NCBI GenBank assembly: GCA_051294905.1
Contig: CM119371.1
Span: forward strand, 17,176,001 to 17,240,000
Length of the DNA: 64,000 nt
From: Botryllus schlosseri
Lineage: Eukaryota
Direction: 5' to 3'
Notes under the pieces: model-generated
Told to the model about the DNA's origin: nothing
What the model saw: only the letters and a program-made list of their open reading frames with translations
Databases searched by the model: none
Shown here: positions 16,476-59,377 of the stretch, piece after piece
Position numbering within the stretch: the stretch's first letter is position 1
Layout of the letters: every line of letters begins with the position of its first letter
Position numbers and translations under genes: made by a program

Positions 16476-17549
16476 TAATAATGGTATTAAACATCACGTC
16501 ACTGCTTCAATGCTGTATCATGTTTACAATGTCACATGTAATAGCCCTGAGTAAATTACGTCCTCATGCGGGTATGACGTCATCGACATACGGCACGAAG
16601 TAATTATCACGTCACAGGACTTTACATATCCCCACAAAATGATGGTGCTTCGCCACGGCTACAACCTAACCGTAGTTTCCGGATCCGGAGTACCAATGAG
16701 CTCCGGAGCTTGGAGCTTTTCATCATAGGAGAAAGCTCCGGAACCGTAGCTGGAGCAGTTTACAATTTGCGACTGCTCTAAGGCCCTGCAGGCAAGTATA
16801 TCGCGAGGCCCGTATTTTCATATAACAATCGATATAATTCGGTCGAACTGCCCATTCCATTTTCTGACCTCTTGTTGATATTTTTTCTTTATTTATATCA
16901 TCAAACCTTCAATCCTCAGCAAAATCATCAATTATTCCACTACTTGTGTCATCTGCGAATTTCCTCTTTCAATACAACAGCATATCAAAGGCCGGGGCAG
17001 GTATTGGGGTGATTACGTCATCAATGTACGCATACTTCTGATGATGCGAATACAATTACGATGAATGGAAAATTATTAAGATTACTCACGTTTACATTAT
17101 CTTTTGGCGACGCAAATGTTGAGTAAGAAATTGCGAAGTAACGTTTGGTGTGTGCTCGTTTTTTGTTATGTTTATGGTTGTATGAAAATAAGACATTGGT
17201 TCTTAACCGGGAGTCCGAGAGCGGCTCTCAATTAGATTTCCTTTGGCCCCCATTGACGTTTGAAAAGCCCACAAAAATATTAAAAAAGCAATTTGTAACA
17301 CAAGAATTAAATTAATGTTCAATAAATTACCCTTGCTTTGCTTGGAGTCTGGAGTTTATAATTAAGATTGGAGATCAATTCCTCTGCTCTCGAGTAGCGA
17401 TTCTCTACTCAGCTAGGAATCGTTGTCAATGATTCCGTTACTCAACCGACACAAAAAACCTTACTCACACTCAAATCCACTCGGATCGGTACTCAGCTCA
17501 CAAACCAGATTTAGGTGCAGGTGGTGTTACGTAACAGCACACTTCCAAC

Positions 17550-18042
17550 GGTGTTTGACCATCAAACCAATCGATCATTTGATGCATACAACAGGTTTAT
17601 CAGCAAGTTTATTGATGAGTTCAACCGCCGCATTGACGGAATGAATGCTTTCTTGCCCATGATGAAAATGCTTTCAAATTCTATAGCATATAAGGTGGCC
17701 ATAGCCCCTAGTAATTTGAAACTTGAGTTGCTAGAAATGCAGTCAGATATCGAGCTCAAGCAATTAATAAAAGTGAATACTTAAATTGAATATTTGCGTC
17801 AAATTCCAGAGGCAAAGCATCCGAACTTAATAGCCAATGCCTTGATAAACGATTCTCTATCGTGATGGACTTATGTTTGCGAACCACTTTTTAGCAAAAT
17901 GGTCAGAATAAAAAATCTATATCGCAATCGATTGACCGATTAATACCACCTCAAGCAGCTACTGCGTACCGCATTCTTTGCAATTACGACTCGCTTTGAC
18001 ACACTTATTGAAGCTCGAAGCCAATGCCAAGTTGGATATTAA
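17550..18042 (+). pseudogene. hAT transposase C-terminal relic (GTF2IRD2/EPM2AIP1-like)
   Basis: One frame with stops: APSNLKLELLEMQSDIELK...HPNLIANAL...TYVCEPLFSKMVRIKNLYRNRLTD*YHLKQLLR, a hAT dimerisation domain pattern. Confidence 0.85.
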
Positions 18043-18475
18043 ATTGATTTTTTCTTGTTAGTGTTGCTATTCGTTGATACGCGCTTTTAAGCTTCATAAT
18101 TTCTGTTATGCCTAATGAGTGTTGCTGGTGCGACTCCAAACGTAAGTAGTAGTGTAGATCGCTCGTGACCTGCAATGGTGGCTTATGGGTGCGGTCGCAC
18201 ATCGTATGGAAAACTCGTGGTGGCACATCGTACTTTTTGACCCGCCCTCTCGGTTGCACATCGTAATGCATTCTTATGGGTGCGCTCGAACATCGTACTT
18301 TTAGGCATAGGCGCCGACTTACGAGGTTACGAGGTGGCGCAGCCACCTCGACACCATATTTACGAGGTGGCGGCCACCTCGTAAACGCCCGAGTTATTTA
18401 TGACCCGTAATTTGTAATCAGACGAATCGATGCGACCTCCTTAGAGACATCTTCGTTATTTATACGCGCGTGCAC

Positions 18476-19753
18476 CATGCGCGTAGCCAGGGGGTTCGAA
18501 TCCCCCTGTTTGAAACGCGAAACCCCGTCATTTTGAAATGACCATTTTAACTCCAATATTCAGTAATTCAGTAATTGTGTTATCATTGTTCCGTGCGGCC
18601 AATTTGCGGGAGGCAAGTTTCCAATCAGCGCGAAGAGTCTGTGATGATATCCCGTTGAGATGGTCGCGAAATTAGGCCAGTCATTGCCGTGTGCGTAGCA
18701 ATCGTCGCCAGCCTGATTTATCGCATCTCGAACAAGCCTGATTCCGCTGGTTTGAACAATCGCATCTGGAATAGGCCCAGTTCAAACTATATCATCGTTT
18801 GTTTGCGCAATCGCCTCTGCTTTGGCGGCTTCTGTCTGGTGTGCACGATATCATTGTGTTGATGACTATACGGCATACTCGTATGATAAGCTTGTCAACG
18901 AGTCCGGAAGTGCTGTTAATTAGCGACTCCCTGATCGGTCGTGAACAATTAAATACGCGCGCTTATCAATGAGTCCTACCTCTTATTTAGCGTTGGTGAC
19001 GATTTGCGCAAGTCAAAATGTACGAGTTTATTTGGAATATGCGCTACAATGACGCCGATTTCAGGTGGTTCAAACCTTTCCTCTTTTATAACTGAAGTCT
19101 TATCACAGCTTCTGATGGTTATGTTCAAGTATTAGCGGAAATCAATTACGGATGTACGCACGCGTCGCACATGTTTGCGGACATTCGATGTCATTCAGTT
19201 TCGCGAAGTCACTCTTTAACCACAATCGCTAATCCGCATACACTTAACTGCATTTTATCCAAGCTATCGCCATCGGGAAGTAGGAGCAAAAGCGTGGTAG
19301 GCCCGAGACGCGGTAGTTAGGCTAGCGATATCTTCCGTACTAGGTCTATTGCAGATGCGATTGTTTAGGCCAGCGATGATCTCGTGCGCACCGGGCCTAT
19401 TGCAGATGCGATTATTCAAGCCAGCGGAATTAGGCTTGTAGGTGACGCGATAAATCAGGCTACCAACAATTGCCGAGCGCGGGGCAATGAATGAACTAAT
19501 TTCGCAATTATCTGAGCGAGAAGCCGGGAGATCGTTTCGCGTTACATTGTGCAGTGCAATGCGTACTGACGAATCTCGCTTATTGCCTTTCGTTATTGGC
19601 CGTGCGTAACACTGATAATACGACTGAATTGCAACCGAGTATTACCGTCAGAGCGCTCATTTGAAAAGGGCGGGGTTTCGCCTTTAAGGAGGGGGTATCG
19701 CGCTTCCAAAGGATGGGCTTTCGACCCCCGAAACCCCCTGGCTTCGCGTCTGG
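18476..19753. mobile_element. Nested fold-back MITE-like element
   Basis: CATGCGCGTAGCCAGGGGG / CCCCCTGGCTTCGCGTCTG ends. Internal inverted homology between about 18665-18790 and 19390-19505. Confidence 0.6.
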
Positions 19754-20114
19754 ATGTACTCCAAAAATGCTTCGCGAAGGTAAATCGGGAAATGCACAAC
19801 TGCCGCCAAAATCCCTGTTTTAATCTGCAAACAATTGCCGCGATGCGAGCTTCTCAATGCGAAGCCAGAAACCGCACGAGACAATTGCTGATTAGCTGCG
19901 CGATTTCACGTTTGTAATCATCATTATTGTCGGTTTGAAACCTCATATTCGAGAGTTGTCGTGTGGTAGTTGCGAAGTTGCCATTCCAGTGCGTGGTGTA
20001 TTTCGTTACTCACACGGCGCGTTGATAACATTGATGCAACTTCAAATTCTTCATGACGTAAATTCTGATTTTTGTTCAATGCATTCCGCCTGATGGAATG
20101 CATCGTATACATCG

Positions 20115-20541
20115 CAGAGATGAGCGGATTTGAAATTTCTATGTCCTAATCCAATCCAAATCCGAACCTTCAAATCCAAATCCAAATCCTAATCCATAAC
20201 TTTTTCATATTCAAGTCCATGTCCAATCCTAATCCGATTCCAACTGGAAATTCAGAAAAAATACTAATTTATGCAATGGAGGGATTCGAAAATTTTCTTT
20301 CACAACCAACGATTCACTTGATTCAAGATAACTTAGTAACCATAAGTACATTAATAACTGATCTGAATAAAGTTTGTCGCCATTCGCCACACGACATTTC
20401 AATCTCCCAGAAAATAGTTCAATCCAATCCAAATCCTAATCCGTTCCGGAAAAAATGTCTAATCCAAATCCAATCCAAATCCGACAGAATTTCACAAATC
20501 CTGTTTTTTCAAAACCTAATCCTAATCCATGCTCATCTCTG
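20115..20541. mobile_element. hAT MITE with AATCC repeats
   Basis: TIRs CAGAGATGAGC / GCTCATCTCTG. Perfect TSD ATACATCG. Confidence 0.9.
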
Positions 20542-20944
20542 ATACATCGTCGGACGAATGATCGTACCGTTTTAAGATTCCACTTAGTAACTTGACTGCA
20601 TGGTTTGATAATAATGAGTGCAGAGTCGATATTAAAACGTAACGTAAAACGCAAATGGTTAACGCTGATCAATCAATCAATCAGTGATTGGCATGTAGGA
20701 AAGTGCGTTTTAGTGTGACGATGACGTCATCGACACGGAACAATTATGACGTCACAAGACTTCGCCACCTCGTAAAAAAATAAAAGTCGGCGCCTATGCT
20801 TTCAGGTATAGGCATCTCTCGCATATCGTATTGAAAACTCGTGTTGGCACATCGTACTTTTAGGTATAGGCATCTCTCGCACGTCGTACTTTCGCAAGTC
20901 ATACTTTTGTGTATAGACTGCGTCGGCATGTCGTACTTTCAGCA

Positions 20945-21810
20945 AAAAAGGTGTGAAATAGTTTGCTAAATCTAGGAATCAGTCGCATGGTAAGGTTTTA
21001 GTAACTAGTTTACCACAGAGCCGGCGTAGACGGCGATTCAAATACCAACAATAGCCGCGTTCACATACTAACACTTCGAAAAGGTGTGAACTATTTGTAA
21101 AATCCTACGATCGCTCACAGAATCACTTACAAGGTCACTTACAAGGTAATATTTCGCTCACAGAATCACTTACAAGGTCACTTACAAGGTAATATTTTGG
21201 TAATTAGTTTACCACAGAGCCGACGTAGACGGCGATTCGAATGCCAACAATCGCCGCGTTCACATGCTATCAGTTCAAAAAGGTGTGAAATAGTTTGCTG
21301 ATTCTAGGAATCACTCGCAAGGTAATATTTTGGTAATTAGTTTACCACAGAGCCGGCGTAGACGGCGATTCGAATACCAACAATAGCCGCGTTCACATAG
21401 TAACACTCGAAAAAGGTGTGAAATATTTGTAAAATCTTACGACCACTCACAAGATAACACATCAGAATAGCCATCTCTTGTGGTTTGATGTTACAAAGAT
21501 AGGAATTACGCACAAGTAATATTTTGGTAATTAGTTTGCCACAGAGCCGGCGTAGACGGTGATACCAACAATAGCCGCGCTCACAAACTAACACTTCAAA
21601 AAGGTGTGGAATAGGTTGCAAATCCCACGATCACTCACGAGATAACACCTAAGACATAGCCATCCCTCGCTACTTGTTGTTACATACATTCCAATCGCCA
21701 CAATGTAATATTTTGATAATCGGTATGTCACAGGAACTGGATTTCACTGGTAAAATTTAATAAGTAACGAATAACAGAACCGTCGCAGACGGTGATTCGA
21801 ATACCGACAA
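20945..21810. repeat. Subterminal tandem array (units of about 120-190 bp) of palindrome 1, mirrored at about 26660-27480
   Basis: Recurring AAAAGGTGTGAAATA...TAATTAGTTTACCACAGAGCCGGCGTAGACGGCGATTCGAATACCAACAATAGCCGCGTTCACA. Confidence 0.85.
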
Positions 21811-24800
21811 ATTCTTACTTATTTCTGATCCAACCCTAATCCTCTGTGAAGTTGACGCTTATTCAAAAAGGTGTGAAATAATTGTAAAATCCTGCGTCGC
21901 TGACACGATAATGCATCAGACATAGCGATATAGTTATAGTACGGTGTCGGAATCCATTCGCGAGATGTTCTATAGGTAAATCGAGATAATCCGAAACCAA
22001 ATATTTTGACTTGGTGTAGTGTGAATTGAAATAGGATTTACAAACATGACTACCATCTTTCCCCCCAGTCGCATTTCGATATTATACGCACATTGATTTG
22101 AAACAAGTAACAACTCTATTCACGATCCGGCTTTCCGTTCGTCAAAGAGACATTTTAACATCTTACCATACTCAAAAGAATTATTCACAACATTAATAAG
22201 TGTTCAAAATCTAGTTTTCACTTACTTGATTATATCACAACAACTCGCAAACTTGAATTTATTCATCCCTGCTGTATTCGTATGATCGGTATTTTTTATT
22301 CAATTGTAAAGGTCGTTACTATTCTGAAGACAAAGTATTTACTAGTCGGTGCATATACGACTTGACATGAACATATTATATTTTGAGTATACGAGATTTG
22401 AATGTCTGAACAATAACTGAGAAATAATTTATCACAATTAAATCCGTATATTACAGCGTAAAAGATATTGGAATGTCACCAACTCTGTACAGTCATAGCT
22501 ACTACCACTTTACCTAATTCACCCGACCAACTCGTCATGATCATTCCTGAAATCAACACAAACATGACCACTGACTTGAGTTAACCACAAAACAGCATCA
22601 AGTTTTAAATCCACTTGTAGCTTACGGATTATTTGAATGCTGGTTATTTTTTTGTTGTAATTGAGTGTATGGAAATAGTATTAAGTCTCGACATCTTACC
22701 ATCTTACCATATTCAAAGAGTCAACCACAAAAACATTATCAAGTAAATCCGTTACCCGATCAACTCAAACTGTATCAGTATGAAAAACAGCCAAGCATAC
22801 ACGAGTCCATACAATCACTAAAACCTAAAATCCATAACAAGTTCGCTTGTACCCATATCCCTACGACGCATCATTTTTATTCAACTTGAAGTAGTTACTA
22901 TTCTGTAAGATAAAGGAATTACTACGCGGTATATTCTGCAAGACAAAGTATTTATTACTCGATATATTTTTGTAAGACAAAAGTAATTACTACTCGGTGC
23001 AGGTGACTTGAGATTAACATGATATGTTTGAGTATACGAGATTTGAAAGTCTGACCAACATAGTTCAGAATTCATTTCTTACAATCCAACGCAGGCGTTA
23101 TATCGAAAATTATCATGATGTAAACATAAGGATTGATACATTGCTGCGACATATGTAACAGTTGATCATGACTTGATTATTAAATCATTCGCGTTAATTA
23201 GACCCGGCGTTGTGGTAAAGGTTATTATGACAGCAGCAAACTTTTCAGCACCGTTGTTATTAATTTATTGAGTTGTAAAACTATGCGTGTCTGAAAGGTT
23301 CGTGATTGAAAAATTATTCCACCTTGGTACATATCACTCTGCGTATCGCGGATATCAGAAAATATTTTACAAATGTAATTGTTTCCAGTAACCAAGACTA
23401 AAGATGAAACGACAATATCGGTATTATTACATTGAACAACCAGTACAATTAATAAAATCTATCGTTTGCGATAAACAGCGCTAAAGATGTATTAATTCCA
23501 GTATCCATACATTGAACATCCGAGGCAAAATGCTTTATTATCCCGATTCGCAACGGGTAATTGAAACGACTAAGTGTAGAGTCAGTATATCACAATATCG
23601 TTACTATTGAATCCAGCAATTGATACGATTTATTGTCGGAATTTGTGACAGAAAATTGAAACATACGTACCTTACATAGTGTGAAAATATCACTTTGAGA
23701 ATCGAGTACCGTTCGAAGCTGGCGATCAATTCTTAATCATTTCAGTAACTCTCCATTGTGCGTGCTAAATGTAAAATATCGCGAGGTTATACACTCTAAG
23801 ACTTTGATCATTACAAAAGTAAATTGTGATATATTTGTTAGATGCATCCAATTCAACTAGAAATGTCTAGTGCCCAACACTCGTAATATCGAAAAAGTAC
23901 TTGCTACACTGTTATTTGCTAAACTTGTTTTGCATTGTTCTTCATTTGTAGTATTGATTGAAATTGTTCTTGAACCCTCAAATAATAATTGCCGACATGA
24001 AACCAAGCCGCTGAAAGTCGTTACCATCACGAAGAAACAATGTGTATGATGTTTGTCAAATGTGTTCTATAGTTAGGTGTACTAGAATTATTTGTGTAGC
24101 ACACCGACAAAGAATTCAGAAATTTTTCCGTTGTCATTCGCTAAAGTAAATACCATCACAATACTCAGTCGCTAAAAGACGTTACTTGTATGTGATTGTA
24201 TATTTCATATCCGTCGAGTGACTAAAATTTCTTTGGAGTCCGGTTTAGTGAGTTAATCGCTAGGGGTACAATCACATACAAGTAACGTCTTTTAGCGACT
24301 GAGTATTGTGATGGTATTTACTTTAGCGAATGACAACGGAAAAATTTCTGAATTCTTTGTCGGTGTGTTACACAAATAATTCTAGTACACCTAACTATAG
24401 AACACATTTGACAAACATCATACACATTGTTTCTTCGTGATGGTAACGACTTTCAGTGGCTTGGTTTCATGTCGGCAATTATTATTTTGGGGTTCAAGAA
24501 TAATTTCAATCAATACTACAAATGAACAACAATGCAAAACAAGTTTAGCAAATAACAGTGTAGCAAGTACTTTTTTGATGTTACGAGTGTTGGGCACTAG
24601 ACACTTCTAGTTGAATTGGATGCATCTAACATATATATCACAATTTACTTTTGTAATGATCAAAGTCTTAAAGTGTATAACCTCGCGATATTTTACATTT
24701 AGCACGCACAATGGAGAGTTACTGAAATGATTAAGAATTGATCGCCAGCTTCGAACGGTACTCGATTCTCAAAGTGATATTTTCACACTATGTAAGGTAC

Positions 24801-27800
24801 GTATGTTTCAATTCTCTGTCACAAATTCCGACAATAAATCGTATCAATTGCTGGATTCAATAGTAACGATATTGTGATATACTGACTCTACACTTAGTCG
24901 TTTCAATTACCCGTTGCGAAACGGGATAATAAAGCATTTTGCCTCGGATGTTCAATGTATGGATATACTGGAATTATTACATCTTTAGCGCTGTTTATCG
25001 CAAACGATAGATTTTATTAATTGTACTGGTTGTTCAATGTAATAATACCGATATTGTCGTTTCATCTTTAGTCTTGGTTACTGGAAACAATTACATTTGT
25101 AAAATATTTTCTGATATCCGCGATACGCAGAGTGATATGTATTAAGGTGGAATAATTTTTCAATCACGAACCTTTCAGACACGCATAGTTTTACAACTCA
25201 ATATGTTAATAACAACGGTACTGAAAAGTTTGCTGCTGTCATAATAACCTTTACCACAACGCCGGGTCTAATTAACGCGAATGATTTAATAATCAAGTCA
25301 TGATCAACTGTTACATATGTCGCAGCAATGTATCAATCCTTATGTTTACATCATGATAATTTTCGATATAACGCCTGCGTTGGATTGTAAGAAATGAATT
25401 CTGAACTATGTTGGTCAGACTTTCAAATCTCGTATACTCAAACATATCATGTTAATCTCAAGTCACCTGCACCGAGTAGTAATTACTTTTGTCTTACAAA
25501 AATATATCGAGTAATAAATACTTTGTCTTGCAGAATATACCGCGTAGTAATTCCTTTATCTTACAGAATAGTAACTACTTCAAGTTGAATAAAAATGATG
25601 CGTCGTAGGGATATGAGTACAAGCGAACTTGTTATGGATTTTAGGTTTTAGTGATTGTATGGACTCGTGTATGCTTGGCTGTTTTTCATACTGATACAGT
25701 TTGAGTTGGTCGGGTAACGGATTTACTTGATAATGTTTTTGTGGTTGACTCTTCGAATATGGTAAGATGGTAAGATGTCGAGACTTAATACTATTTCCAT
25801 ACACTCAATTACAACAAAACATAACCAGCATTCAAATAATCCGTAAGCGACAAGTGGATTTAAAACTTGATGCTGTTTTGTGGTTAACTCAAGTCAGTGG
25901 TCATGTTTGTGTTGATTTCAGGAATGATCATGACGAGTTGGTCGGGTGAATTAGGTAAAGTGGTAGTAGCTATGACTGTACAGAGTTGGTGATATTCCAA
26001 TATCTTTTACGCTGTAATATACGGATTCAATTGTGATAAATTATTTCTCAGTTATTGTTCAGACATTCAAATCTCGTATACTCAAAATATAATATGTTCA
26101 TGTCAAGTCGTATATGCACCGACTAGTAAATACTTTGTCTTCAGAATAGTAACGACCTTTACAATTGAATAAAAAATACCGATCATACGAATACAGCAAG
26201 GATGAATAAATTCAAGTTTGCGAGTTGTTGTGATATAATCAAGTAAGTGAAAACTAGATTTTGAACACTTAATAATGTTGTGAATAATTCTTTTGAGTAT
26301 GGTAAGATGTTAAAATGTCTCTTTGACGAACGGAAAGCCGGATCGTGAATAGAGTTGTTACTTGTTTCAAATCAATGTGCGTATAATATCGAAATGCGAC
26401 TGGGGGGAAAGATGGTAGTCATGTTTGTATATCCTATTTCAATTCACACTACACCAAGTCAAAATATTTGGTTTCGGATTATCTCGATTTACCTATAGAA
26501 CATCTCGCGAATGGATTCCGACACCGTACTATAACTATATCGCTATGTCTGATGCATTATCGTGTCAGCGACGCAGGATTTTACAATTATTTCACACCTT
26601 TTTGAATAAGCGTCAACTTCACAGAGGATTAGGGTTGGATCAGAAATAAGTAAGAATTTGTCGGTATTCGAATCACCGTCTGCGACGGTTCTGTTATTCG
26701 TTACTTATTAAATTTTACCAGTGAAATCCAGTTCCTGTGACATACCGATTATCAAAATATTACATTGTGGCGATTGGAATGTATGTAACAACAAGTTGCG
26801 AGGGATGGCTATGTCTTAGGTGTTATCTCGTGAGTGATCGTGGGATTTGCAACCTATTCCACACCTTTTTGAAGTGTTAGTTTGTGAGCGCGGCTATTGT
26901 TGGTATCACCGTCTACGCCGGCTCTGTGGCAAACTAATTACCAAAATATTACTTGTGCGTAATTCCTATCTTTGTAACATCAAACCACAAGAGATGGCTA
27001 TTCTGATGTGTTATCTTGTGAGTGGTCGTAGGATTTTACAAATATTTCACACCTTTTTGGAGTGTTACTATGTGAACGCGGCTATTGTTGGTATTCGAAT
27101 CGCCGTCTACGCCGGCTCTGTGGTAAACTAATTACCAAAATATTACCTTGCGAGTGATTCCTAGAATCAGCAAACTATTTCACACCTTTTTGAAGTGATA
27201 GCATGTGAACGCGGCTATTGTTGGTATTCGAATCGCCGTCTACGTCGGCTCTGTGGTAAACCAATTACCAAAATATTACCTTGTAAGTGATTCAATAAAT
27301 TCTGTGAGCGATCGTAGGATTTTACAAATAGTTCACACCTTTTCGAAGTGTTAGTATGTGAACGCGGCTATTGTTGGTATTTGAATCGCCGTCTACGCCG
27401 GCTCTGTGGTAAACTAAATACCAAAGCCTTACCATGCGACTGATTCCTAAATTTAGCAAACTATTTCACACCTTTTTTGCTGAAAGTACGACATGCCGAC
27501 GCAGTCTATACACAAAAGTATGACATGCGAAAGTACGACGTGCGAGAGATGCCTATACCTAAAAGTACGATGTGCCAACACGAGTTTTCAATACGATATG
27601 CGAGAGATGCCTATACCTAAAAGTACGATGTGCGAGCGCACCCATAAGAACGCATTACGATGTGCGACCGAGAGGGGGGTCAAAAAGTACGATGTGCCAC
27701 CACGAGTTTTCCATACGAGGTGCGACCGCACCCATAAGCCACCATTGCAGGTCACGAGCGATCTATACTACTACTAACGTACTCTGAAATTTGAAATGCG

Positions 27801-29169
27801 GCACTGATACCAGAAAAGGTTGGGAATCACTGAGCTACTTTGTATCTTGTTAATTAGGGAAAGCGTTAGACGGTCTAGCTTCATCATTTACTCCAGAACT
27901 CACGTCTAATATAAAATATGACATTGTGCAAGCTCATTTTAATTGTCAAATTGCCAATCGCCTACTAAAATTCTTGAGTTTGTTGCCAAATCTCTCCCAA
28001 TGAAGACTGAAACCTCGCCACGGAATCCGTTTTCTCCTGTAGTATATATAGATAGCTATACTACTCCAGAATAACGTCGAGGTTAGATCGAGGATAGAAA
28101 TTACTAGAAATTACGTTTTATGTTCATACTCTGTGTCCTCAATTTTGGTGCCATATACGATGCGATCATATGCTCAGACAGTGGTTCTCAACCTTTTTCA
28201 CCTTGCAGCACCCTTTGAAAATTAAAAATAGTTCGTGGGACACTAGCACAGTGGTTCTCAACTTTTTTATCTCACGACACAGGTAAATTACCAGAATACT
28301 TAGCGCTCAGCAACAGCAGTCGTACAGAGGTGGTCCATGATGAAGCACCTTTACCTTTTTGGAGCACCCAAATAGGACTTGCTCTGCCTCAAAAAATAAA
28401 TTATTGTATCTTCGATCGCGGCGAACATGTCACAAATACGTCTACGAATGGTATGATTTGACTTGGGAGTCACTTTAAATCCTTCCGCAGCTTCGGGCCA
28501 CATTTTCTTTTCAATTCTAGCGCATGCCGAAAGAGGAACCTTCTCCGCTTCCGTGTAAGATTTTGAATTTTTAGCTGCTATATCATTTACAACTTAACTG
28601 CGACCTGCTGAGATCTCGTTTAAACTCGTTTAAAATCCAGAAATTTTGTATATGCCAATCCTAATCCTGATCCTAATCAGATGCAAACATGGAATTCCGC
28701 TTAGAAATCCTACATTATATGCATATAAATGTAAAAATAAATGAAATGCTTAATGAATGCCAAAACACATGAAGTAACTTTGGTAGGACGAGAATGGATG
28801 TCGCCATAAGACTTATGACTAGGGTTGTATTTAAAACAAAAATCAGTTCAAAACAAATATGTTCAAAACAAGTCCCTACATCAAAATATGTTGTTCCTTG
28901 TGTTTTTTCTTTTTTTCTAAAGCCATGACGTCAGGAATATTCAATTTTTACGTCATAGTGGATTGACAGTGACAAATGAAAATACAGGGTAAATATAGCT
29001 CCTGTGATGGAATATCTGTACTTCTAATGTTGAACCGACTATTTTGAGGGTTCCAACCATCCCATATCGATATACGTAGGCTATATCTGGTGGTAATTGT
29101 CCGCACGGTAGGGTCGTACAACATGTTTTTTGTAAAGTATTTACATAATCATGGCATAATTATACAACT

Positions 29170-29660
29170 AAAAAGGACAATTCATTTTAAAGGGCCTTTT
29201 TAAAAACCGGTTTCAAACATGCGTTAAACAAAGTGTTACGACACAGTGAAAACGGATGTGAATTTTAGGACAACGCAACTGCTCCATTCATCATGCAAAG
29301 ACGGGCCTCCTGCACTTCAACAAATTATTATTCTGTATGAATTTAAATGCCCCTGTAATTGTGGCTACGTATATGAAAAACGTCGAAGCGTTTGCAGGGA
29401 CGCATAAACCATCTTTTCCCTAGATTAATCAGAACACATGCATCACGCTCGGTGAAAAGCCCACCCTTGACTCATCCGTTTAGGCTTGGTGCTGAGCGTT
29501 TGAAGGCCATGAATCTGTCATTGGCAACCATTCGTTTGATAATTCTACTTGTGACAAAAACTATCGAGAAGACAATTTTCGTGTCATCAGAAGGGGCCGC
29601 TTATCAAAATACATCAGCTCAAGATTTGTTTACGAAAGGAGTTCGTGTACCAGTTTAAAA
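29170..29660 (+). pseudogene. Penelope-like GIY-YIG endonuclease relic
   Basis: Frameshifted FRTTQLLHSSCKDGPPALQQIIILYEFKCPCNCGYV..KTSKRLQGRINH...HESVIGNHSFDNSTCDKNYREDNFRVIRRGR fits the Penelope-like endonuclease pattern. Confidence 0.75.
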
Positions 29661-38146: not shown

Positions 38147-38402
38147 GCTCCGGGGCTCCGGCTCCGGCTCCAAAGCCCTGATTCAAAGCCATTTTCTAGT
38201 TTGCTCAGTTTCGAGTCTTATTCGACACGTCTGGCATTATTCGCAACTGTGCCCTGAGCGCTCGCTCGGTATGAACTGTTAAGATGCCGGGTTGGAATCC
38301 CGGAACGTTAAGATACGTTAATCTGAATATAGTTGGTGTGCAGTATCACACCGTGTGCACAGTTAGTAGAATCGTTGGTGTACACGAGACACCGATTCCA
38401 TA

Positions 38403-39274
38403 ATGGCAGATAGGTATACGGGATGTGTTTCATCCCTTTCAGATAAAATGGATATTGACATAGATATGTTAGAATATTACATGCAAGTGAATGGAAACAG
38501 GCTGCGGTCAATACGGAAGTACCTTATAGATTTGGATAATCCCGTGGAATACCTCACTGGGGAACTGTTTTCTGATCGCTATAGGCTTACGAAACCCGGT
38601 GTTATGAGATATATGGATGTCCTACAGTGTGACCTTACCAACCCATCCAACAAAGGCCTGCCCTCGCCCCCGTTGTTAAAGTTCCTTGTTGTTTTGCGGT
38701 TTTACGCCACAGGAAACTTTCAAGTTGTTGCTGGGGAACTGGAACGTGTCTCCCATCCCACCGTTAGGAGATTGGTGAAACTGGTCAGCATTGCTATAGC
38801 TCATAAAAGCTTAGCGTACATCAAATTCCCACAGGGTGAAGTCGAAGCTAATGAGGCTACACGATTTTACGACAAATCGGGCTTTCTGGGTGCTGTAGGT
38901 GCCATTGATTGCACGCATATAAAGATACAATCGCCAGGTGGTCACAATCGCCAGGTGGTCCTACTGCAGAGTTGTACCGGAACAGAAAAAGATTCTTCTC
39001 TCTGAATGTGCAAGCCGTATGTGACTCTCATATGAAGTTCACTAACATAGTTTACCGTTGGAGGGGGTCAGTCCGTGATTCCAGGATCTTTCGTTTGTCA
39101 ATGCTTCGAGCTAAATTTGAAAATGGAGACTACACAGGAATTTTACTGGGGGACAATGGCTATGGGTGTGCAGGATACTTGATGACACCATTTGTGGCAC
39201 CCCAAACAGCTGCTGAACGTCCATATAACAAGGCTCTAATATCCTCCAGAATAACTATAGAACCAGAGTTCTGA
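38403..39274 (+). pseudogene. Harbinger (HARBI1-like, DDE_Tnp_4) transposase, frameshifted and C-terminally truncated
   Basis: Motifs LRFYATGNFQ, GAIDCTHIKI, YRNRK.FFSLNVQAVCD, GSVRDSRIF, LLGDNGY, SRITIE. A 17-bp duplication at 38927-38960 causes the frameshift. Confidence 0.93.
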
Positions 39275-39866: not shown

Positions 39867-41260
39867 CAGGGGCGGGCAACTTCTCCAGTCGGCGGGCCGG
39901 ATACAGGCAAATTAAGTACTTGGCGGGCCGGATTGCTGAATCGACACATTATTCGCCCATTTATCCAAATACACAAGGAATAAATCGTATTTAATGAATG
40001 GATTTTAACGACAGTAGTGTCACTTCAAAGCCATTTCTCGCCGATAATGACGAGGATATAATGTGGATTTGAGAACAGCATTGTCATACAGGCGCCGCCA
40101 TGTCTGCTTCTCTCTGATCATAGTGTCCTATATGGTGTTGACACAAGCAAATATCACAGCTCAGTGAAATTGGTCTTCGTCACACTTTCCATTTGGTCTA
40201 CGTCACACTTTCCATTTGGTCAAAGGCAATTAGACGGTAGTTTTTGACCGACTTGCCGAGCATTGAATTTGATAAAACGGGGATCAATCGAAAGCTACCG
40301 CGGTGCTGGTTGCGAAAATGTAAATTCTATTCTGCTCGAGGTTCTGGAACCCCCAAAATCAGCCTTGAATGTTGCATTGTAACGGAGTTTTGTATTGTGA
40401 CACAGCCATGCGGTTTACTCTGCTCCTCACCTAATCCCAGACGGCATCGTTGCGCCACAATACCAAACTCCGTTACAATGCAACATTCGAAGCTGATTTT
40501 GGGGGGTCCCAGGACCACGAACCGAATAGAATTTATATTTTCGCAATTATTACCGCGGGAAAGTGAAAGGAAAGTGTGACGTAGACCTATTTCACTGAGC
40601 CGTGAGATTTTCTTGTGTACACACCTTATAGGACACTATGCTGTGCTCAATTAACTCACGGTGCAATCCCGAATTAATATTTCAAGGTGTTCGATAAGCC
40701 CAGTACCCCGAATTTACCAATATATCAATTCATTAGGGCTGAGTAGGTGATGAGATAGCGTCGTTGTCCATCTGTGTGGCCTATTTTATCTCGATATTAA
40801 ATTCATGCGGACCGCGGCATCTATATACGAAATTTGAAGTTGCCCGCGACCCGTTTAGAGTTGGCGTCCCCTGGCATAAGCGGTGTCTTACAAGAGCCAA
40901 CAAGTGTGCCGTGCTACAAGTCGGCGGTTACGGAATAAAAAAATAGAAATATCGGTCTGGTGTAAATGATCCTACTAACACCATGATTACCACAAACGAT
41001 ATTAGGGTTGAGTACATCGTAAATGCCGATAATGCAAACCTTCTCGCTTCGACGAACTTACGTGCAAGCTCCACTCTCACGCTGCGCATACAAATAACAT
41101 TCAGTCACTAAAATTTGACGTAGTAAGCAAGTAGCGGGGTATTTCGGCAGACTGTATCCGCGGGCCACATTATCATATAAGACGGAAAAATGTCCACGGG
41201 CCGGACAAAATCCCTTCGCGGGCCGGATCCGGCCCGCGGGACGTATGTTGCCCACCCCTG
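39867..41260. mobile_element. hAT MITE
   Basis: TIRs CAGGGGCGGGCAAC / GTTGCCCACCCCTG. Perfect TSD TCATAGAA. Same family as 47417-62331. Confidence 0.9.
40119..40640. mobile_element. Palindromic (fold-back) MITE with CATAG termini
   Basis: CATAGTGTCCTATA...TATAGGACACTATG with inverted homology extending to the centre. Approximate 7-bp TSD CTCTGAT/CTGTGCT. The empty site is seen at about 48730-48750 on the minus strand. Confidence 0.8.
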
Positions 41261-42463: not shown

Positions 42464-43264
42464 GGTTGCCAGTAAATTCGGCCCTCGGTAAATTCAGCCA
42501 GTGAATTCGGCCCATGACCTCGGTAAATTCGGCCCTCCGAGAATATTGTATTAAAATGTATTTCCAACCGTTAACATGAATTAATTACATAATTATACTA
42601 TTATTAAGTGATTTGGATGTCAGGGTATGCGTAGATCGCATAATCGTGGGAGATAGCGGGGATATTCACGGGCCCGAATTTACCGATGGCCGAATTTACT
42701 CGGTAAATTCGTCCCCCGGAGAATTTTGTATAAAAATGTATTACCAACTATTAATGTGAATGAATTACATAATTATTTTATTATCGAGTGATTTGAAGGT
42801 CAGGGTATGCGTATATCGTACAGTCACGGGAGATAATGCAGATATTTACGGGGCCGAATTTACTGACCACCGAATTCAATTGGTAAATTCGGCCCTCGGA
42901 GAATTTTGTGTAAAATTGTATTACCAACTCTTAATGTGAATTATATTACATAATTATATTATTATCAAGTGATAGGAGCTTGGGGTTAGGATTAGGTTAG
43001 GGTTAAGGTTAGGATTAGAGTTAGTTAGGGTTATGATTAGGGTTAGGTTAGGGTTTTGATTAGGTTAGGATTAGGGTTAGTTTAGGGTTAGGATTGGGTT
43101 AGGTTAGGGTTAGGTTAGGGTTAAGGTTAGGTAATGTTATTGTAACTGTTATTGTTACCCTGGCCCTGGCCGAATTTACCGGGGGCCGAATTTACCTAAG
43201 GTCGAAGTGATCGAGGGCCGAAGTCACTGGCCGAATTTACCGAGGGCCGAATTTACTGGCAATC
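42464..43264. mobile_element. Non-autonomous Mutator-like element with a telomere-like tract
   Basis: TIRs GGTTGCCAGTAAATTCGGCCCTCGG. 9-bp TSD TGTCCGTAT. About three units of about 180 bp. GGTTA/TTAGGG tract at 42982-43132. Confidence 0.8.
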
Positions 43265-46322: not shown

Positions 46323-49300
46323 CCCTAGCAAACGGTGCTTTAAAAGTAGAAACACCATGGGAATCACTGACTCTAGTTCATTGGAGCTGATCTCGCTGTA
46401 GTGACAGTGTCACGCTGCAAAAAGTCGGCACCCGAGACCCGAAGTGGAATGAATGGCGGACTGAAATAAAGAGTGAAGTGAATGTGAACTACTGCGAAGC
46501 GCTTGAAGAAAGATGCATATGTCAACGATACTGATAAGATACAAAAAAGACAATGATACTGAATTGTACAATATCCATGTCGTGATGCACTAAGCCTAAA
46601 AAAGGCTATAAGCTCAACTGAAATGACTTCATTTTATTTTAATAATAACTTGAGCAATAATGAGGAGCATATGAAATCATGGCTGATGAAAAGAATAACG
46701 GTTAAATGTATAGTAAACCAACAATGGTGACCACAACATAAAAATATGTTGGGGCTCGCGAGTTATGCGTTTTGCGTTGGGACCGTTGAATCGCCAATTG
46801 CAATTTCAACTTCAAGCTGAAACTTGAGGTATTTAGGTGGTACTGTAGTTCACAGAAGAAAAATGCTGATCCACTGCAACATGGTGGACAGAAATAATAC
46901 AAAACGATCTGGAATCGCTTAAAACACCGTTGTATTCTGTTTCAGCAACTGGGGGCGGCCGAGGATGAAACTGCAAGCCACGAAACCGAGTCTTCAAATT
47001 CTTCCCAGTCAGGTAGAGTGATAAACACACCCGCAATTTATCTTTCCATGAGATCCGCGAAATTTTGTTTAAACGAACACGCAGAAGTGATCAACGTATA
47101 GGCATGTCTGATGCTCGAGTTCAGGTAGAAGTAATTCCGTAGTGCATGAGTTTTCAAACTAGGAGACGTGACCCCGTCTGTTTTAAATGTAACCCTACAC
47201 AGGAAACATGCCTACGCCGCGGTCGAATAAGTTATAGATCAGGGGTGGCAAATAGTCCCATGAAATCGAAACTACAGGTAAATGTTTATATGCCACGTTG
47301 TAACCATCCGACAGCGGTATGATGATTTCACTCTAGTCCAGAGGTTACCAACCTTTTTTGGCCGTGGCTCAATTACAGGTTTTAAAATGTTCTGTGGCCC
47401 ATCTCTTAGCCTAGAGCAAGAACGGGCAACATACGGCCCGCGACGGGATTTCGTCCGGCCCGCGGACAGTTTCCCGTTTTCTGTCGAGATTACCCATTAC
47501 TCGGTCAGACGTCAAATTTTAGTGACTGTATGTTATTATATACGCGTGAGCTGTGCATAGCGTGTAAGAGTGGAACTCACGCGTAAGTTCGTCGAAGCGA
47601 AATCATGGTATGCATATCCTCAGTTTGTGTGCATATATATCTTGAGTCGGGGTATTTGCCATAAAAATATCAAGGACAAAAATAAACTACATCGTTTCCT
47701 TTCTTGTATCGTATTCATATTATCATTATGATCATTTGCAATGAGGGTCGCTGAGACATTTTCAACTCTAATTCTATCATCAGACCTTCATTTTTCCTTT
47801 ATCCATATGAATTGAATTCGAGGTACCTGGTCACTTTTCACTTACACAATGATGGCAGCACCACTCACCCACCGTAAAAGTTATTATGTACTCAGGATGC
47901 TGTGTATATTGGTTTGAGTGCGCAACATTTGCTCCTATGTACAATAGGTGCCTTCAAAAACGATATATTTTCTCAAATCGTACTGGCTACTTCTTAAAAC
48001 AGCTAAATAGTATTTACAGTAGGCATCACTATAATAAATAATTGAAGAATTAGTCACCGTAAATACTATTTCATTCATAATCCAAATTTTTCGAAGGCAG
48101 CAACTCGGCCTTCGCTGGATGGAATTGAACCAAATTTGGGGAACATCGCTTCTATGGACAACCTAACACTTTCATGGGGTGAACATAAGATTTTAAATTT
48201 TTTTGTTATTCATTTTTATTCATTTGGTGTGTAGGCTTAAATTGGGTAACCTAACAATTTTATCAAGTAACCAGTACGATTAGGGAAAAAAGTCATTTTT
48301 GAATACCCCTAATGTACAATGATAAAGTTATGCGTGGTGATTATCTAACAAATGCGTTAGCAAATGTCTACGAAGAATTCTCGGTATGTAATCTAAGACT
48401 TAGATGATCGCCACCACTGCACAGCTACATGGGTCGTATTCTTATCCACCGCACCAGCTTAGTTGGATACCCACGTTGGACCCGACATAATCCAACAGAC
48501 ATAGCCTGTAAGTCTATATTAATTCTCCTTGGTACCAAGTTGGCTTACCTGATGGGTACTAACTTTAACTCCATGTGGGTCCCGTGTGGTAGGCCTACCC
48601 AAGTAGTCGTAAGACTTGCATTATCGGCATTTTACTATGTACTCAATCCTAATGAATTGAAATCTTGGTAAATTTGGAGTACCGGGCTTATCGAACGCCT
48701 TGAAATCTTTATTAGTGATTGCACCGTGTGTTAATTGATCAGAGAGAAGCAGAAATGGCGGCGCCTGTATGATGATGCTGTTCTCAAATCCACATTTCAC
48801 TCATCATTATCGGCTTGATCTGGCTTTCAAGTGACATTGATGTCGTTAAAATACATTCATTAAATACGATTTATTCCTTGTATATGTCAATACCTGGGCG
48901 AATAATGTATCGATTCAGCAATCCGGCCGTCATGTTCCTAATTTTCCTACATCCGGCCCGCCGACTGGAGAAGTTGCCAGTAGTTATATAGATGGCTCGT
49001 GATGTGGCAGGGGTTCTTATGGCGGGGTGGCGATTCGCCTGGAAACCCGGGGTGGCGATTCGCCTCTTATCTCTTATGGCGGGGCCGCGATTCGCCATGT
49101 GTTCTTATGGATGCGGTCGTGATTCGCCTTTTCGGATATAGGCTGCGGCGGTGAATCGTATTGAAATACTCGTGGTCGTGACTCGCCTTTTTTGCTATAG
49201 GCTGCGGCGGTGATGCGCCATGTATTCTTACGGGATCTGTGGTGATTCGCCATGTGTTCTTATGGGTGCGGTCGTGAATCGTACTTTTAGGTATAGACAT

Positions 49301-51917
49301 CTCTCGCATATCATACTTTCGGGTATAGACATCACTAAACAGGAAATTCACTAATCCGCAGTGCATTGCGCGATTTTGAAAACCAGATGTTGGCGGTTTT
49401 GTGTGACCCACTAAATACGTCCGTTTTGGAAATTCGGAGCGCGCACTATCGTATCGATTATTCCGCTAATCCGGTAAGTACTATTACATACAGGAGTATT
49501 CAGTATTCAGCAACGACACGAAAAGCGACCAACAAATAACCGCACTCGTAAATTAACACCTAAAAAAGTGTAAAATAGATTGCAAATCCCGCGATCGCTA
49601 ACAAGATAATGTCTCGGGTATAACCATTTAGTGACTTGGTGTTAAAGACATACCGATCGCTCACAAGGTAATATTTCGGTAATTAGTTTGTCACAGAGCC
49701 GTCGCAGACGGTGATTCGAAAACCAGCAATTTGACACTTTCTGGTGGTCGCTATATGTTTTGACACTTCGAACAGTGGCTGACTTTAGTTGCACGCTAAG
49801 AATTATGAGAATATTCAATCAATGTGTCAATTTGTCAACTTGAAATGAAACTTACTACACAACTCAAGTTGATTCGTATCTGAATGTGTTAATTCGGTAC
49901 AATTCTAATTAATTTGAGAAATCTTTTGATTCGACCGTAACCCGAATATTACTGACGCCGACTTTCAGCCGCATCGAATTATTCACACATTCCGCGCCGC
50001 TGTTTTCGCACTTATAGAATCAATACCAACTATAACTCTACAAGAATCAAGAATCACAAGTATGTGCATTATACAGTTATTGTCTTTATCAACACGAAAT
50101 CAAACTCTTAACAAAAACACACATCTTCATGAAAACCATCGAGTCCTTATCATCAAAAATGTTATAGTGCGGCGTCGGAATCCATTCGCGGAGTGTACTA
50201 AAGTTAAATCCAGATAATCCAAAATGAAATATTTGGACTTTGCCATAGTGTGAATTGAAATAGGATTGACAAACATGACTACCAACTTTGATCCAGTCAC
50301 ATTTCAAGATGATACTTTGAAACAAGTAATGTAACATTACAACTCTATTCACGATCCTGCTTTCCGTTTGTCAAAGAGATATTTTAACATCTTACCATAC
50401 TCAAAAGAATTATTCACAACATTAACAATTGTTAAAAATCTAGTTTCACTTACTTGATTATATCACTACAACTCACAAATTTACATTAATTCATCCTGGT
50501 TGGATTCGTATGCTCTATCTTTTTATTCAATTGTAAAGGTTGTTACTATTCTGAAGACAAAGTATTTACTAATCGGCGCATATACGATTTGACTTGGACA
50601 TATTATATTTTGAGTATACGAGATTTCAATGTCTGAACAATAACTGAGAATTAATTTATCTCAATTAAATCCGTATATTACAGCGTAAAAGATATTGGGG
50701 TGTCAGCAACTCTGTACGGTCGTAGTTACAACCACATTAACTAATCTACCCAGGCAACTCGTCATGATCATTCCTGAAATCAACACAAACACGACCACTG
50801 ACTTGAGTTAACCGCGAAACAGCATCAAGTTTTAAATCCGCTTGCAGCTGACGGATTATTCGAATGCATCGATGGAGAATATTATTGAACTCGTCGGTAT
50901 TGTTACTTCAACGAATTACACCGACTGCGAAAGTTAATATCGAATGGTAAGACTTGATCACATATTTGTTGATCACAGACATGACAAAAAAACATTACCG
51001 AGATTTTATAAACTAGTCATATTACTCTACACATCTATCAATATCAAAATGCGAGTCATCCAATTTTTCTACTAAAGTAACATTGCACTTTCGGATTCGA
51101 ATTCGGTATAGTCATACAAATTGTATTAAATCCAACATCAAAACAAAAGGAATTTTTTTAGTTTATTGAAATCAAATCATTCGTCTTCGACTTGTGCTTT
51201 TCTAGATTACCCGCGACAATTCGTTTCGAGTGAGTTGTAACCAAAGGCAAGATATCTTTGTGTCCACAGATATGGAAGATGAATATAGCTAACACAATCA
51301 CGAATCGACGTTTCAGAGTATTTCACGGGTGTAATAAACTTGTTAGTGTCACCTATCTAAAAGTACGCACGCGTTCGATTTCCATACCGACTGTTGCGAT
51401 GTTTAGGATTCACTTACAATAACCACGGGTGAGGATTTAACATCAATGTCGTTACTGTCGGAATTTGCGACAGAGAATTGAAACATATGCACTTTACAGA
51501 GTGTGAAAATATCACTTTGAGTATCGAGTACCGCTCGAAGCTAGCGATCAATTCTTAATCATTTCAGTAACTCCCCATTGTGCGTGCTAAATGCAAAATA
51601 TCGCGAGGTTATACACTCTAAGACTTTGATTATTGTAAAAGTAAATTGTGATATGTTTGTTAGATGCGTCCAATTCAACTAGAAGTGTCTAGTACCCAAC
51701 ACTCGTAATATCAAAAAAGTACTTGCTACACTGTTATTTGCTAAACGTGTTTTGCATTGTTGTTCATTTCTAGTATTGATTGAAGTTGTTTTTGAACCCT
51801 CAAATAATAATTCCCGACATGAAACTAAGCCGCCGAAAGTCGTTAACATCACAAAGAAACAGTTTGCACGATGTTTACTAAATGTGTCCTATAGTTAGGT
51901 GTACTGGAATTATTTGT

Positions 51918-51920
<3 letters not shown>

Positions 51921-51950
<30 letters not shown>
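51921..51950. repeat. (AC)15 microsatellite, mirrored as (GT)15 at 59345-59374
   Basis: Direct reading of the sequence. Confidence 0.95.
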
Positions 51951-51952
<2 letters not shown>

Positions 51953-53739
51953 TCAGAGAAATTGGAAATTTTTCCGTTGTCATTCGCTAAAGTAAATGTC
52001 ATCACAATACTCTGTCACTAAAAGACGTTACTTGGACGTGCTTGAATTCTAGACATAGTTCTGATTTACCCAACACAAGACCCATGGACAACCCTAGTTT
52101 CAACCGAACACAGATATCCAAAATATCACACACTTCGCTATTCCTAAAGCACAAACACACGATACAAAATAATACTTGTTGTGTTGTTGCGGCATCATCA
52201 CTCAACAATATCACCGTCAATACAAATGATGTTTATGTGTAACATGCTATTGATTTGAACCACACCCACCTGACAGAAGAGGATTTACTCAATCTTTACA
52301 AAATGGATATTGACCAACATCACACCACCGGATTGTATCTGTTTCGCTGGATACGAGTTATGTTAGTTTAACAGTAAACAAATTTCACCCTCTTGGATTA
52401 TGAACTCAATGCGTCAGCAGTCATTCAATATTTTGTTTGTGTCAACTAGTTACTTTGTATGTTACCCCACAACTCTTACAAAAGTACGAAGGATATTAAC
52501 ACAAAGTAATTAACTTTACTCGATATTCTCGCATTACGAAACTAAAGAATGGGTGGTTAGACTCTACAAACTGTTTCGATATCACAAGACCTTTATTGTC
52601 TGAATGGGTGTTCATGTGTCTTAAGAACCAAATAGTTCAACACAGCACTAGTACCAACAGAAACATCAGAGTTGGTCACACAAAAGTTTGTATGCGTGCA
52701 GTATGCGAATACCATGTGTAAGTCCAGCACAATTGTGGTATCCATCCGGTTTTAGTTAACACAATTTACGACACCGAGGTCACCTCATCTTTCGTAAGAC
52801 AACAAACCAACCAAGGTTTCAGGATATGTCCGTGTCATAGCAATAAATCAGCTACTCCAACAACAGAGTACATATGTTTTCTAGTTACGGTGCTTACATC
52901 TTACACACAAATCAATCTACTTTGCTAACAAAAAGTGCTGGGTCATCAAGTGATTACCCTAACAACAAAACAGCTAAACGTACTATCATACAAAATGGCC
53001 GTTATAGTCACCAACGGTACATGGTACAAGTAACAAGTCTCGAGAATCCAGTTATTGAAAAAACATGAAAGTGTTTCTCCTGCGCCAAGTCGTTATGTTG
53101 ACGAAAGCGTATATTGTAATATCATGATCGATTTGCATTCGTTGGTCGCAAAATGTCACTACTCTAAATAATTATTTTTCACTCAAACACAAACGCATAC
53201 TTGTCGCCAATCGTTTTTCATCAAGCACGAGTTCAAGAAACCTGCTACGACATGAATTCCGATTTAGTTTTACAAATATTTTATAATTGTTTTTAGTAAC
53301 ACTATATCAATGTCATCAAGTTGAGTGTTTACGATATTAGTGTGTAGGTGTGTGTGTCATACTTGGAGGATCCGTATTACAATTGACTCGAATTGACTAA
53401 ATGTAAGAAGGGTTGAAATGTTTCGAATCGATTCATAAGTGGTCTTCGTTGTGGTTTTCGTCGGGTCATACAGCACGAACTAACTGTAGACTCCTCTCTG
53501 TTGTACAGCTACTCGGTAATCGATATGCATTAACATGTAAACAACGATCTTGTTTCGTCACACCAAAAATATGTTCACTGTCGCGATACGCCGCACAAGA
53601 CGTGCATAGCCTTTTCACACTCGTAATAGTATACCAACGTCAAGCAATAACGTTTAACAAGACCAACGACACTGAACCCACGACGTTTACCTATGTAAAA
53701 TTACCACTTTCACTTGCCAGTCCATCGTTTACCTGACTA

Positions 53740-54425
53740 AACATATTATTTTCCTTTGGAGATCTGCCGTTTACCCAGAGTAAGAAACCATTTTCCCTCG
53801 TAAATATTTTTTTTCCTCGGCTAACAAACCTTTTTTCACTTGGAAATATATTTTTCTCTGGGTAAGAAACCATTTTCATTGGGAAATCTATTTTTTTTCC
53901 CTGGGTAACAAACCTTTTTTCACTTGGAAATATATTTTTTTCCCGGATAACAAACCTTTTTCACTTGGAAATATATTTTCCCCCGGATAACAAACCTTTT
54001 TCACTTGGAAATATATTTTTTCCCTGGGTAACAAACCTTTTTCACTTGGACATATATTTTTTCTCTGGGTAACAAACCTTTTTCACTTGGAAATATATTT
54101 TTTCTTTGAGCAACAAACCTTTTTCACTTGGAAATATATTTTTATCCTACAGCAACAAACCATTTTCACTTGGTAGTCCACCGTTTACCTGAGTAAAAAT
54201 ATCATTTTCCTTTGGAGATCTGGCGTTTACCCATGCTAACAAACCATTTTCACTTGGAAAAATACTTTTACCTAGAGTAACTAATCATTTTCTTTTGGAA
54301 ATATATTTTCTCCCAGGGTAACAAATCCTTTTCGCTTGGAAAACTGTCATTCACCTGAGTACCAATACCGTTTTCACTTGGAAATCTATCTTTTCGCTAG
54401 GTAATAATACCATTTTCGTTTTGAA
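53740..54425. repeat. Minisatellite with a unit of about 39 bp, mirrored at about 56870-57555
   Basis: Unit CTGGGTAACAAACCTTTTTCACTTGGAAATATATTTTTT, degenerate at the edges. Confidence 0.92.
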
Positions 54426-54569
54426 AACTGACACACACACCGGACAATTTGATATTTTTTGTATATTGTTACAACAAACGGTGACAAAATATACACCAGC
54501 AACGACTCCATACATTTGTGTAATCAAATATTCAGTTGCTCTGATGCATCCATCAAAATAATTGGTTAC

Positions 54570-59342: not shown

Positions 59343-59377
<35 letters not shown>

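Follow-up and report, generated by a model that had tools for sequence, protein, structure and literature searches.

The 64,000-nucleotide stretch of Botryllus schlosseri DNA analysed here (NCBI GenBank assembly GCA_051294905.1, contig CM119371.1, positions 17,176,001 to 17,240,000 of the forward strand; hereafter the window, with positions counted from its first letter) holds two giant palindromes. The subject of this report is the one at 18145–27775, a single insertion that measures 9.6 kb with the later insertions it carries and about 7.08 kb without them, here called the 7-kb element; the other, element 2, is a copy of the same family and serves for comparison. The palindromic insertion at 18145–27775 is real. 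What is new is that, judged by sequence comparison, its arm corresponds to no more of element 2's arm than the outer 3.07 kb, while its loop, read in reverse, weakly continues the match. The explanation we favour, with somewhat more belief than doubt, is that a family member was shortened by fold-back, inserted by the integrase of a helper and then aged to about seven times element 2's arm divergence.

Architecture and ageing of the 7-kb element

Self-comparison of the window yields two giant inverted repeats, 20799–27623 and 48978–62318, together with an outer piece, 18140–18312, that pairs with 27609–27780. The 7-kb element starts with AGTAGT (AGTAGTAGTGTAGATCGCTCGTGA) and finishes with ACTACT (TCACGAGCGATCTATACTACTACT), and it lies between two perfect copies of a 6-bp target site duplication (TSD), AACGTA, at 18139–18144 on the left and 27776–27781 on the right; two 6-mers drawn at random from the window would be identical with a probability of 0.0004. 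The forward-strand left arm comes in two pieces. The outer one (18145–18305) begins AGTAGTAGTGTAGATCGCTCGTGA, an (AGT)n end of Maverick type, bears short subterminal repeats and differs from 27616–27775 by 5 substitutions in 160 columns, while the inner one runs from 20807 to 24200. The right arm, on the reverse strand (24267–27775), is uninterrupted over 3,509 bp and ends in CACGAGCGATCTATACTACTACT. Between the arms sits a loop of 66 bp (24201–24266) with little structure of its own, adjoined by a perfect 101-bp stem, and inverted repeats account for 99% of the 7-kb unit. These measurements agree with the preliminary description of the locus, which gave arms of about 3.5 kb around a spacer at 24201–24266. 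The outer arms also contain subrepeats of 133 and 188 bp (about 20945–21733 and 26735–27477) built on the motifs AAAAGGTGTG and ACCACAGAGCCG, which are possibly a protein-binding array; element 2 has a shorter version at 49528–49730.

Aligned in three pieces that exclude the duplication region and the insert's second TSD copy, the two arms differ by 47 substitutions in 3,498 columns (1.34%). A cruder alignment that keeps the duplication region finds 52 differences in 3,507. The scattered arm-to-arm substitutions of the preliminary description are therefore present, and its view that the arms are real and ageing separately is upheld by the four-arm comparison given below, where all 18 arm differences in 1,266 columns are private to one arm. 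Its statement that the unit is stably integrated holds in one sense only, namely that the element has lasted long enough for 1.3% arm divergence and several insertions. An apparently uneven density of substitutions along the arm (p 0.003) was set aside, since that count takes in misaligned sites at the duplication.

Two changes are confined to the left arm. The larger is an insert of 2,493 bp (18306–20798) with the ends CATAGGCGCCGAC and GTCGGCGCCTATG, flanked by the 8-bp TSD copies CTTTTAGG (18298–18305) and CTTTCAGG (20799–20806); the right arm keeps the empty site, in agreement with the left-arm-only insertion of 2.5 kb first described. The insert is a nest of at least three short, non-coding inverted-repeat elements. 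One of these (18475–19753) has 22-bp arms that are 86% complementary and no clear TSD, and another (20115–20541) has the ends CAGAGATGAGC and GCTCATCTCTG and the perfect 8-bp TSD ATACATCG. The first of the two also contains an internal 171-bp inverted repeat (18650–18820 and 19351–19521, 76%). Elements of the hAT superfamily are recognised by an 8-bp TSD and short terminal inverted repeats (TIRs), a pattern found both in the outer insert, with seven of eight TSD bases matching, and in the nested element, with all eight. It is by the length of its TSD that the insert, labelled hAT in the preliminary description, is a candidate for that superfamily. Its longest stop-free frame is 130 amino acids (aa), and a Pfam scan of one of its nine frames of at least 55 aa gave no relevant match and none below E 0.04.

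The smaller change, at 21111–21197 on the forward strand, had been noted as a short duplication at about 21110–21190. It is present and confined to the left arm, but it is compound rather than simple: a 43-bp tandem duplication that contains a 12-bp duplication is combined with a 9-bp difference, for a net gain of 46 bp over the right arm.

Kinship with element 2 and the origin of the apex

Element 2 (48979–62317, 13.3 kb) has arms of 6.18 kb that are 99.8% alike, differing at 12 of 6,179 positions, around a loop of 980 bp. Both of its arms carry an (AC)15 run and a 15-copy array of a 41-bp unit, neither of which is found in the 7-kb element. The two had been described as members of one family that inserted separately, and the comparison bears this out. 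Left-arm blocks 21933–22640 and 23630–24200 of the 7-kb element are 86–87% identical to element 2, the TSDs differ, as had been stated (AACGTA versus GTTGCC), and the flanks do not align. Dispersed copies with intact ends and different TSDs are thus seen in both of the window's elements. The terminus said to be shared, TAGATCGCTCGTGA, is exact at three of the four ends and has one change at element 2's left end. Of the claim of different host elements, what is shown is that the two sets of flanks do not align. Element 2's host repeat has an empty paralogous site with a single GTTGCC at 39875–39880. This second copy of the host repeat (39875–40120 and 40566–40745) seems to be split by another insertion at about 40120–40640, which holds an imperfect 260-bp palindrome (40298–40558).

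The four arms share 1,266 columns. Of these, 1,128 are the same throughout, 119 are fixed between the elements, 18 differ between the arms of the 7-kb element and 1 differs between those of element 2, while no arm-specific difference in these columns is shared by the two elements. This pattern indicates that the arms of each element were identical at the start, and the likeness within elements set against the difference between them points to arms made from one another at or before insertion. It also supports the earlier view that palindromy is a family trait, both elements in the window being palindromic. With element 2 as outgroup, 12 of the 18 differences fall to the right arm and 6 to the left, an imbalance that is not significant (p 0.24). 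The arm divergence of the 7-kb element is about seven times that of element 2.

The arm of the 7-kb element is colinear with the outer 3.07 kb only of element 2's 6.18-kb arm. The last block common to both ends at the apex of the 7-kb element. Element 2's segment 52100–56200, which comprises most of its inner arm and the 980-bp loop, has no blastn or tblastx match in the 7-kb element; the inner 3.1 kb, the 980-bp loop and the 91-aa open reading frame (ORF) within it are all missing there. The preliminary description had called the palindrome independent. It is indeed a separate insertion, but its arm follows the order of the outer half of element 2's arm as far as its own apex and no farther, and the shortening of a longer palindrome is likely a better fit than a separate origin.

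The loop lends some support to this. Reversed, it gives a weak, gapped alignment with the continuation of element 2's arm at about 52046–52128, with a score above 97.5–98.8% of 808 control positions in that arm under all four scoring schemes; the forward loop at the same position scores below average. The test gives p 0.012–0.025 per orientation and p 0.047 by shuffling, which, corrected for the two orientations tried, become about 0.025–0.05, or 0.09 by shuffling. The signal comes only from this test anchored at the homologous position, and the loop's locally best matches elsewhere in the window score 27–29 against 28–44 for shuffles, no better than chance. A colinear arm that ends at its own apex and a reversed loop that weakly matches element 2 together suggest that a longer palindrome was probably re-folded or deleted nearer its ends. 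The letters of element 2 that directly follow the matching stretch are ATCACAC, similar to the arm start TACAATCACATAC of the 7-kb element; this was noticed after the fact and could be a priming site.

These features can be assembled into a model. The parent would have been a longer palindromic family member of 13–16 kb, one strand of which turned back on itself some 3 kb from its end and served as its own template, giving the 7-kb form. The polymerase and integrase of a helper Maverick would have copied and inserted this form, with one arm templated on the other at the time of insertion or shortly before it. The 66-bp loop would be a one-sided leftover of the arm, marking either the junction of the fold-back (copy-back) event or a deletion across the hairpin stem, and a loop of this kind belongs to the anatomy of copy-back genomes (as excerpted in PMC13506859). 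Shortening may have preceded integration, acting on an intermediate of replication that was still free, or may have taken place later in the chromosome; the hairpin intermediate may likewise belong to helper-driven replication or to a later time in the chromosome. Two independent breakpoints would be expected to fall within 66–83 bp of symmetry in only 2–5% of cases, and the rarity of such chance symmetry makes a hairpin intermediate likely.

Public-run contigs and competing origins

Contigs from four public runs of three samples (X1, X2, X5 and X7), all assembled from short reads, were compared with positions 24201–29600. X5 and X7 carry other organism labels, with small word shares of 0.13 and 0.11. 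Right-flank pieces of 206–277 bp match X1 and X2 contigs with no difference, so the organism of the locus is present in both runs. X1 has 68,636 contigs on the interval, where their depth is by far greatest over the arm. Depth near the apex is 169–520 times that of the flank, which is read only as many copies because summed contig depth is not copy number. Of the 35 variant sites listed in the arm, eight are positions at which the two arms of the element disagree, and at all eight the other copies side with the left arm; the list can reveal right-arm changes only. A short repeat in the right flank (28880–29240) has a summed contig depth as high as that of the arm in all four runs.

Several observations weigh against a shortening by fold-back as the source of this copy. 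The loop match is weak and gapped, and it is to element 2, a member of a distant subfamily. The stretch of high identity shared with element 2 gives out some 12 bp short of the apex; a random late deletion would not be expected to fall so near, and the coincidence would suit an apex that is old and inherited. All four runs contain many variant contigs in which the loop's right part continues into the arm: position 24258 shows the variant base in 35 contigs of X1 and 9 of X2, and in X5 and X7 as well. Such contigs fit either a longer-armed subfamily or a common short apex. In X7 the loop contig has a depth of 24.7 and the nearby arm contig one of 48.8, the 1:2 ratio of a common apex. No Maverick gene turned up in the frames scanned, no helper was seen in the window, and neither the viral nor the metagenome collection yielded a true relative. 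Finally, a shorter spacer makes a chromosomal palindrome less stable (spacer effect, as excerpted in PMC3855049), so selection for stability does not explain the shortening of a loop from 1 kb to 66 bp.

The strongest competitor draws on the same evidence. It keeps the Maverick-dependent family but takes the 7-kb form with its 66-bp apex to be a mobile subfamily that arose from an old fold-back and was inserted as such, a possibility to which we give appreciable weight while thinking it doubtful. The right part of the loop is multi-copy in all four runs and all three samples, the homology conserved with element 2 breaks off almost at the apex itself, and the depths in X7 are apex-like. The 1:2 ratio is missing in X1, X2 and X5, however, depth being no copy number, and the X7 loop contig seems to extend some 6 bases beyond the point where a contig at an apex should break, an estimate that assumes 31-mers. 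No strand-change joint is found among the 15 of 228 joints listed, a result that we regard as inconclusive. Among these joints, the 24 of 2,333 loose ends and the 32 of 83,197 pieces listed, none bears on the apex or on a junction of element and flank.

It is improbable, to a greater degree, that the palindrome is a foldback cut-and-paste transposon of the FB, Tetris or Galileo kind, or a member of another DDE superfamily with 6-bp TSDs, with long arms that gene conversion would keep alike. Inverted arms that are long and non-coding and contain tandem subrepeats, here of 133/188 bp, are a foldback layout (as excerpted in PMC4079207), and the lack of any Maverick gene agrees with it. The published TSDs of 8–10 bp in that excerpt, however, point to Mutator, whereas both elements here have 6-bp TSDs and AGTAGT ends. 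Conversion fares no better, since all 18 arm differences are private and unrepaired, and the persistence of the 2.5-kb insert and the 46-bp gain in one arm means that any ongoing conversion is weak at this locus.

An origin by chromosomal accident, whether two family copies lying head to head or a break repaired in place by fold-back, is very unlikely. Long inverted repeats are fragile and do rearrange (as excerpted in PMC3855049), but the unit as a whole lies within one perfect TSD, its symmetry ends precisely where the element does and takes in no flank, and element 2 has the same layout. That the palindrome is an assembly artefact of fold-back reads is scarcely credible: although the evidence consists of contigs and none of the pieces shown spans both arms, the two arms differ by 47 substitutions, among them changes that can be assigned to one arm or the other, the insertions confined to the left arm have TSDs of their own, a TSD surrounds the whole unit, and right-flank pieces of 206–277 bp match run contigs exactly.

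Gene content, neighbours and comparison with known systems

Searches of the 7-kb element for genes were negative. In the right arm plus loop no stop-free frame exceeds 97 aa, and for the frame of that length the ESM Atlas gave no usable match. Pfam, applied to 8 of the 17 frames of at least 55 aa in this interval, gave a best E of 0.038 to an unrelated family, and none of 26 frames from both elements and the insert reached a curated cut-off. The scanned frames of the 7-kb element contain no match to pPolB, integrase, ATPase, protease or capsid. Rfam over 18100–27800 gave no match up to E 0.5, and substitutions in the conserved blocks have no codon periodicity (p 0.35 and 0.31). A conserved 20-mer of the arm had no match in viral contigs, nor had it or the apex pattern one in metagenome contigs. 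The terminal 16-mer met a single match in viral contigs, inside an ORF of an unrelated phage-like contig, and this was rejected as chance.

The 91-aa ORF of element 2's loop (55209–55484, reverse strand) has three relatives, which are 95, 75 and 70% identical to it. The contigs that carry them are about 1 kb long and so match the loop in size. Neither Pfam nor the ESM Atlas holds a match to it, and its alignment gave 51 pattern matches in viral contigs, none of which was confirmed as a relative.

Frames in the flanks of the 7-kb element (17515–18035 and 28354–28593) look, by their motifs, like decayed pieces of hAT transposase, but have no Pfam match in support; for the left flank as a decayed hAT transposase end, none of six flank frames matches a transposase family. 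Farther along the window, 38370–39274 on the forward strand is a frameshifted remnant of a DDE_Tnp_4 transposase of Harbinger/PIF type (E 1e-16). A degenerate interstitial array of telomere-like GGGTTA/GGTTA units at 42983–43132 adjoins a 180-bp tandem repeat at 42519–42973.

The Maverick/Polinton class (Kapitonov and Jurka 2006, as cited in later papers), which the preliminary description did not name, offers the closest comparison. Both systems have (AGT)2//(ACT)2 ends, a 6-bp TSD and long terminal inverted repeats. Vertebrate Mavericks have been mapped by 5'-(AGT)2//(ACT)2-3' ends and a perfect 6-bp TSD (as excerpted in PMC8097293). The 7-kb element carries the Maverick end motif, given as (AGT)2//(ACT)2 or (AG)3//(CT)3, and both elements have perfect 6-bp TSDs (AACGTA and GTTGCC). 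In contrast, Mavericks have genes between their TIRs, whereas the 7-kb element is almost all repeat: arms of 3.5 kb enclose a middle of 66 bp, not the layout of an autonomous Maverick, and no core gene of one was matched in the scanned frames. The available excerpts describe Maverick TIRs of 100–1,500 bp around 13–25 kb of genes (bioRxiv 10.1101/2023.08.22.554363) and polintons with gene-bearing TIRs of about 2 kb and active forms that lack polB (bioRxiv 10.1101/2025.02.07.637071); TIR-only insertions in C. elegans are, on such excerpts, among the nearest published cases. The literature covered, which took in few subscription papers and not Repbase, yielded no description of an almost wholly palindromic, gene-less Maverick. 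Maverick ends, a 6-bp TSD and no recognisable gene together suggest dependence on a helper. In behaviour, the 7-kb element is likely a non-autonomous Maverick derivative, to judge from its ends and its TSD; it is not an autonomous Maverick. Repbase holds non-autonomous Polinton entries, among which an earlier description may lie.

Maverick replication has been modelled, from gene content, as proceeding through a free single strand with protein priming. Gene-less palindromes whose arms were identical at the start and whose apices lie at varying distances from the ends are the expected trace of a single-stranded intermediate. We raise, tentatively and with more doubt than confidence, the broader idea that animal Mavericks spawn heritable snap-back satellites, whose arms would be re-made from each other at replication and whose fold-back points would each found a new size class; the 7-kb copy would then preserve a fold-back junction, in the form of 66 bp of one-sided arm backed by a short inverted match in the longer relative, and represent a mobile class of its own. 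If true, this would attest directly, at the level of sequence, to an intermediate of Maverick replication that is single-stranded and primes itself. The palindrome family makes the replication model testable from sequence and extrachromosomal DNA, and arm divergence dates each insertion, as long terminal repeat divergence does. Having persisted in an animal germ line, a repeat whose 3.5-kb arms are separated by just 66 bp is also a natural case for the study of palindrome stability. The interest lies mostly in the family; what the 7-kb copy contributes is a possible junction.

Foldback transposons (Drosophila FB, Tetris and Galileo) share with the family long, non-coding inverted arms, tandem subrepeats and a small middle. 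They differ in dimensions: Tetris has TSDs of 8–10 bp and TIRs of up to 1,735 bp, while the family of the 7-kb element has a 6-bp TSD, AGT ends and arms of 3.5–6.2 kb. Most foldbacks have been assigned to Mutator, and Galileo to P (all as excerpted in PMC4079207). The family thus presents the foldback arm layout with its subrepeats, but the 8–10-bp TSD is found in neither of the two elements.

A further parallel is with the copy-back or snap-back defective viral genomes, in which the polymerase leaves its template and copies the new strand back. As excerpted in PMC13506859, duplication of one end gives these genomes, too, the form of an almost complete palindrome closed by a small loop; they are non-coding, and they depend on a helper, as the 7-kb element probably does. 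Arms identical at formation, as copy-back would produce, are what the four-arm comparison indicates, with 119 fixed, no arm-specific and 18 private differences in 1,266 columns. Copy-back genomes are, on the same excerpt, mostly those of RNA viruses and transient; the 7-kb element, in contrast, consists of DNA, has been integrated with formation of a TSD, is inherited and belongs to a repeat family.

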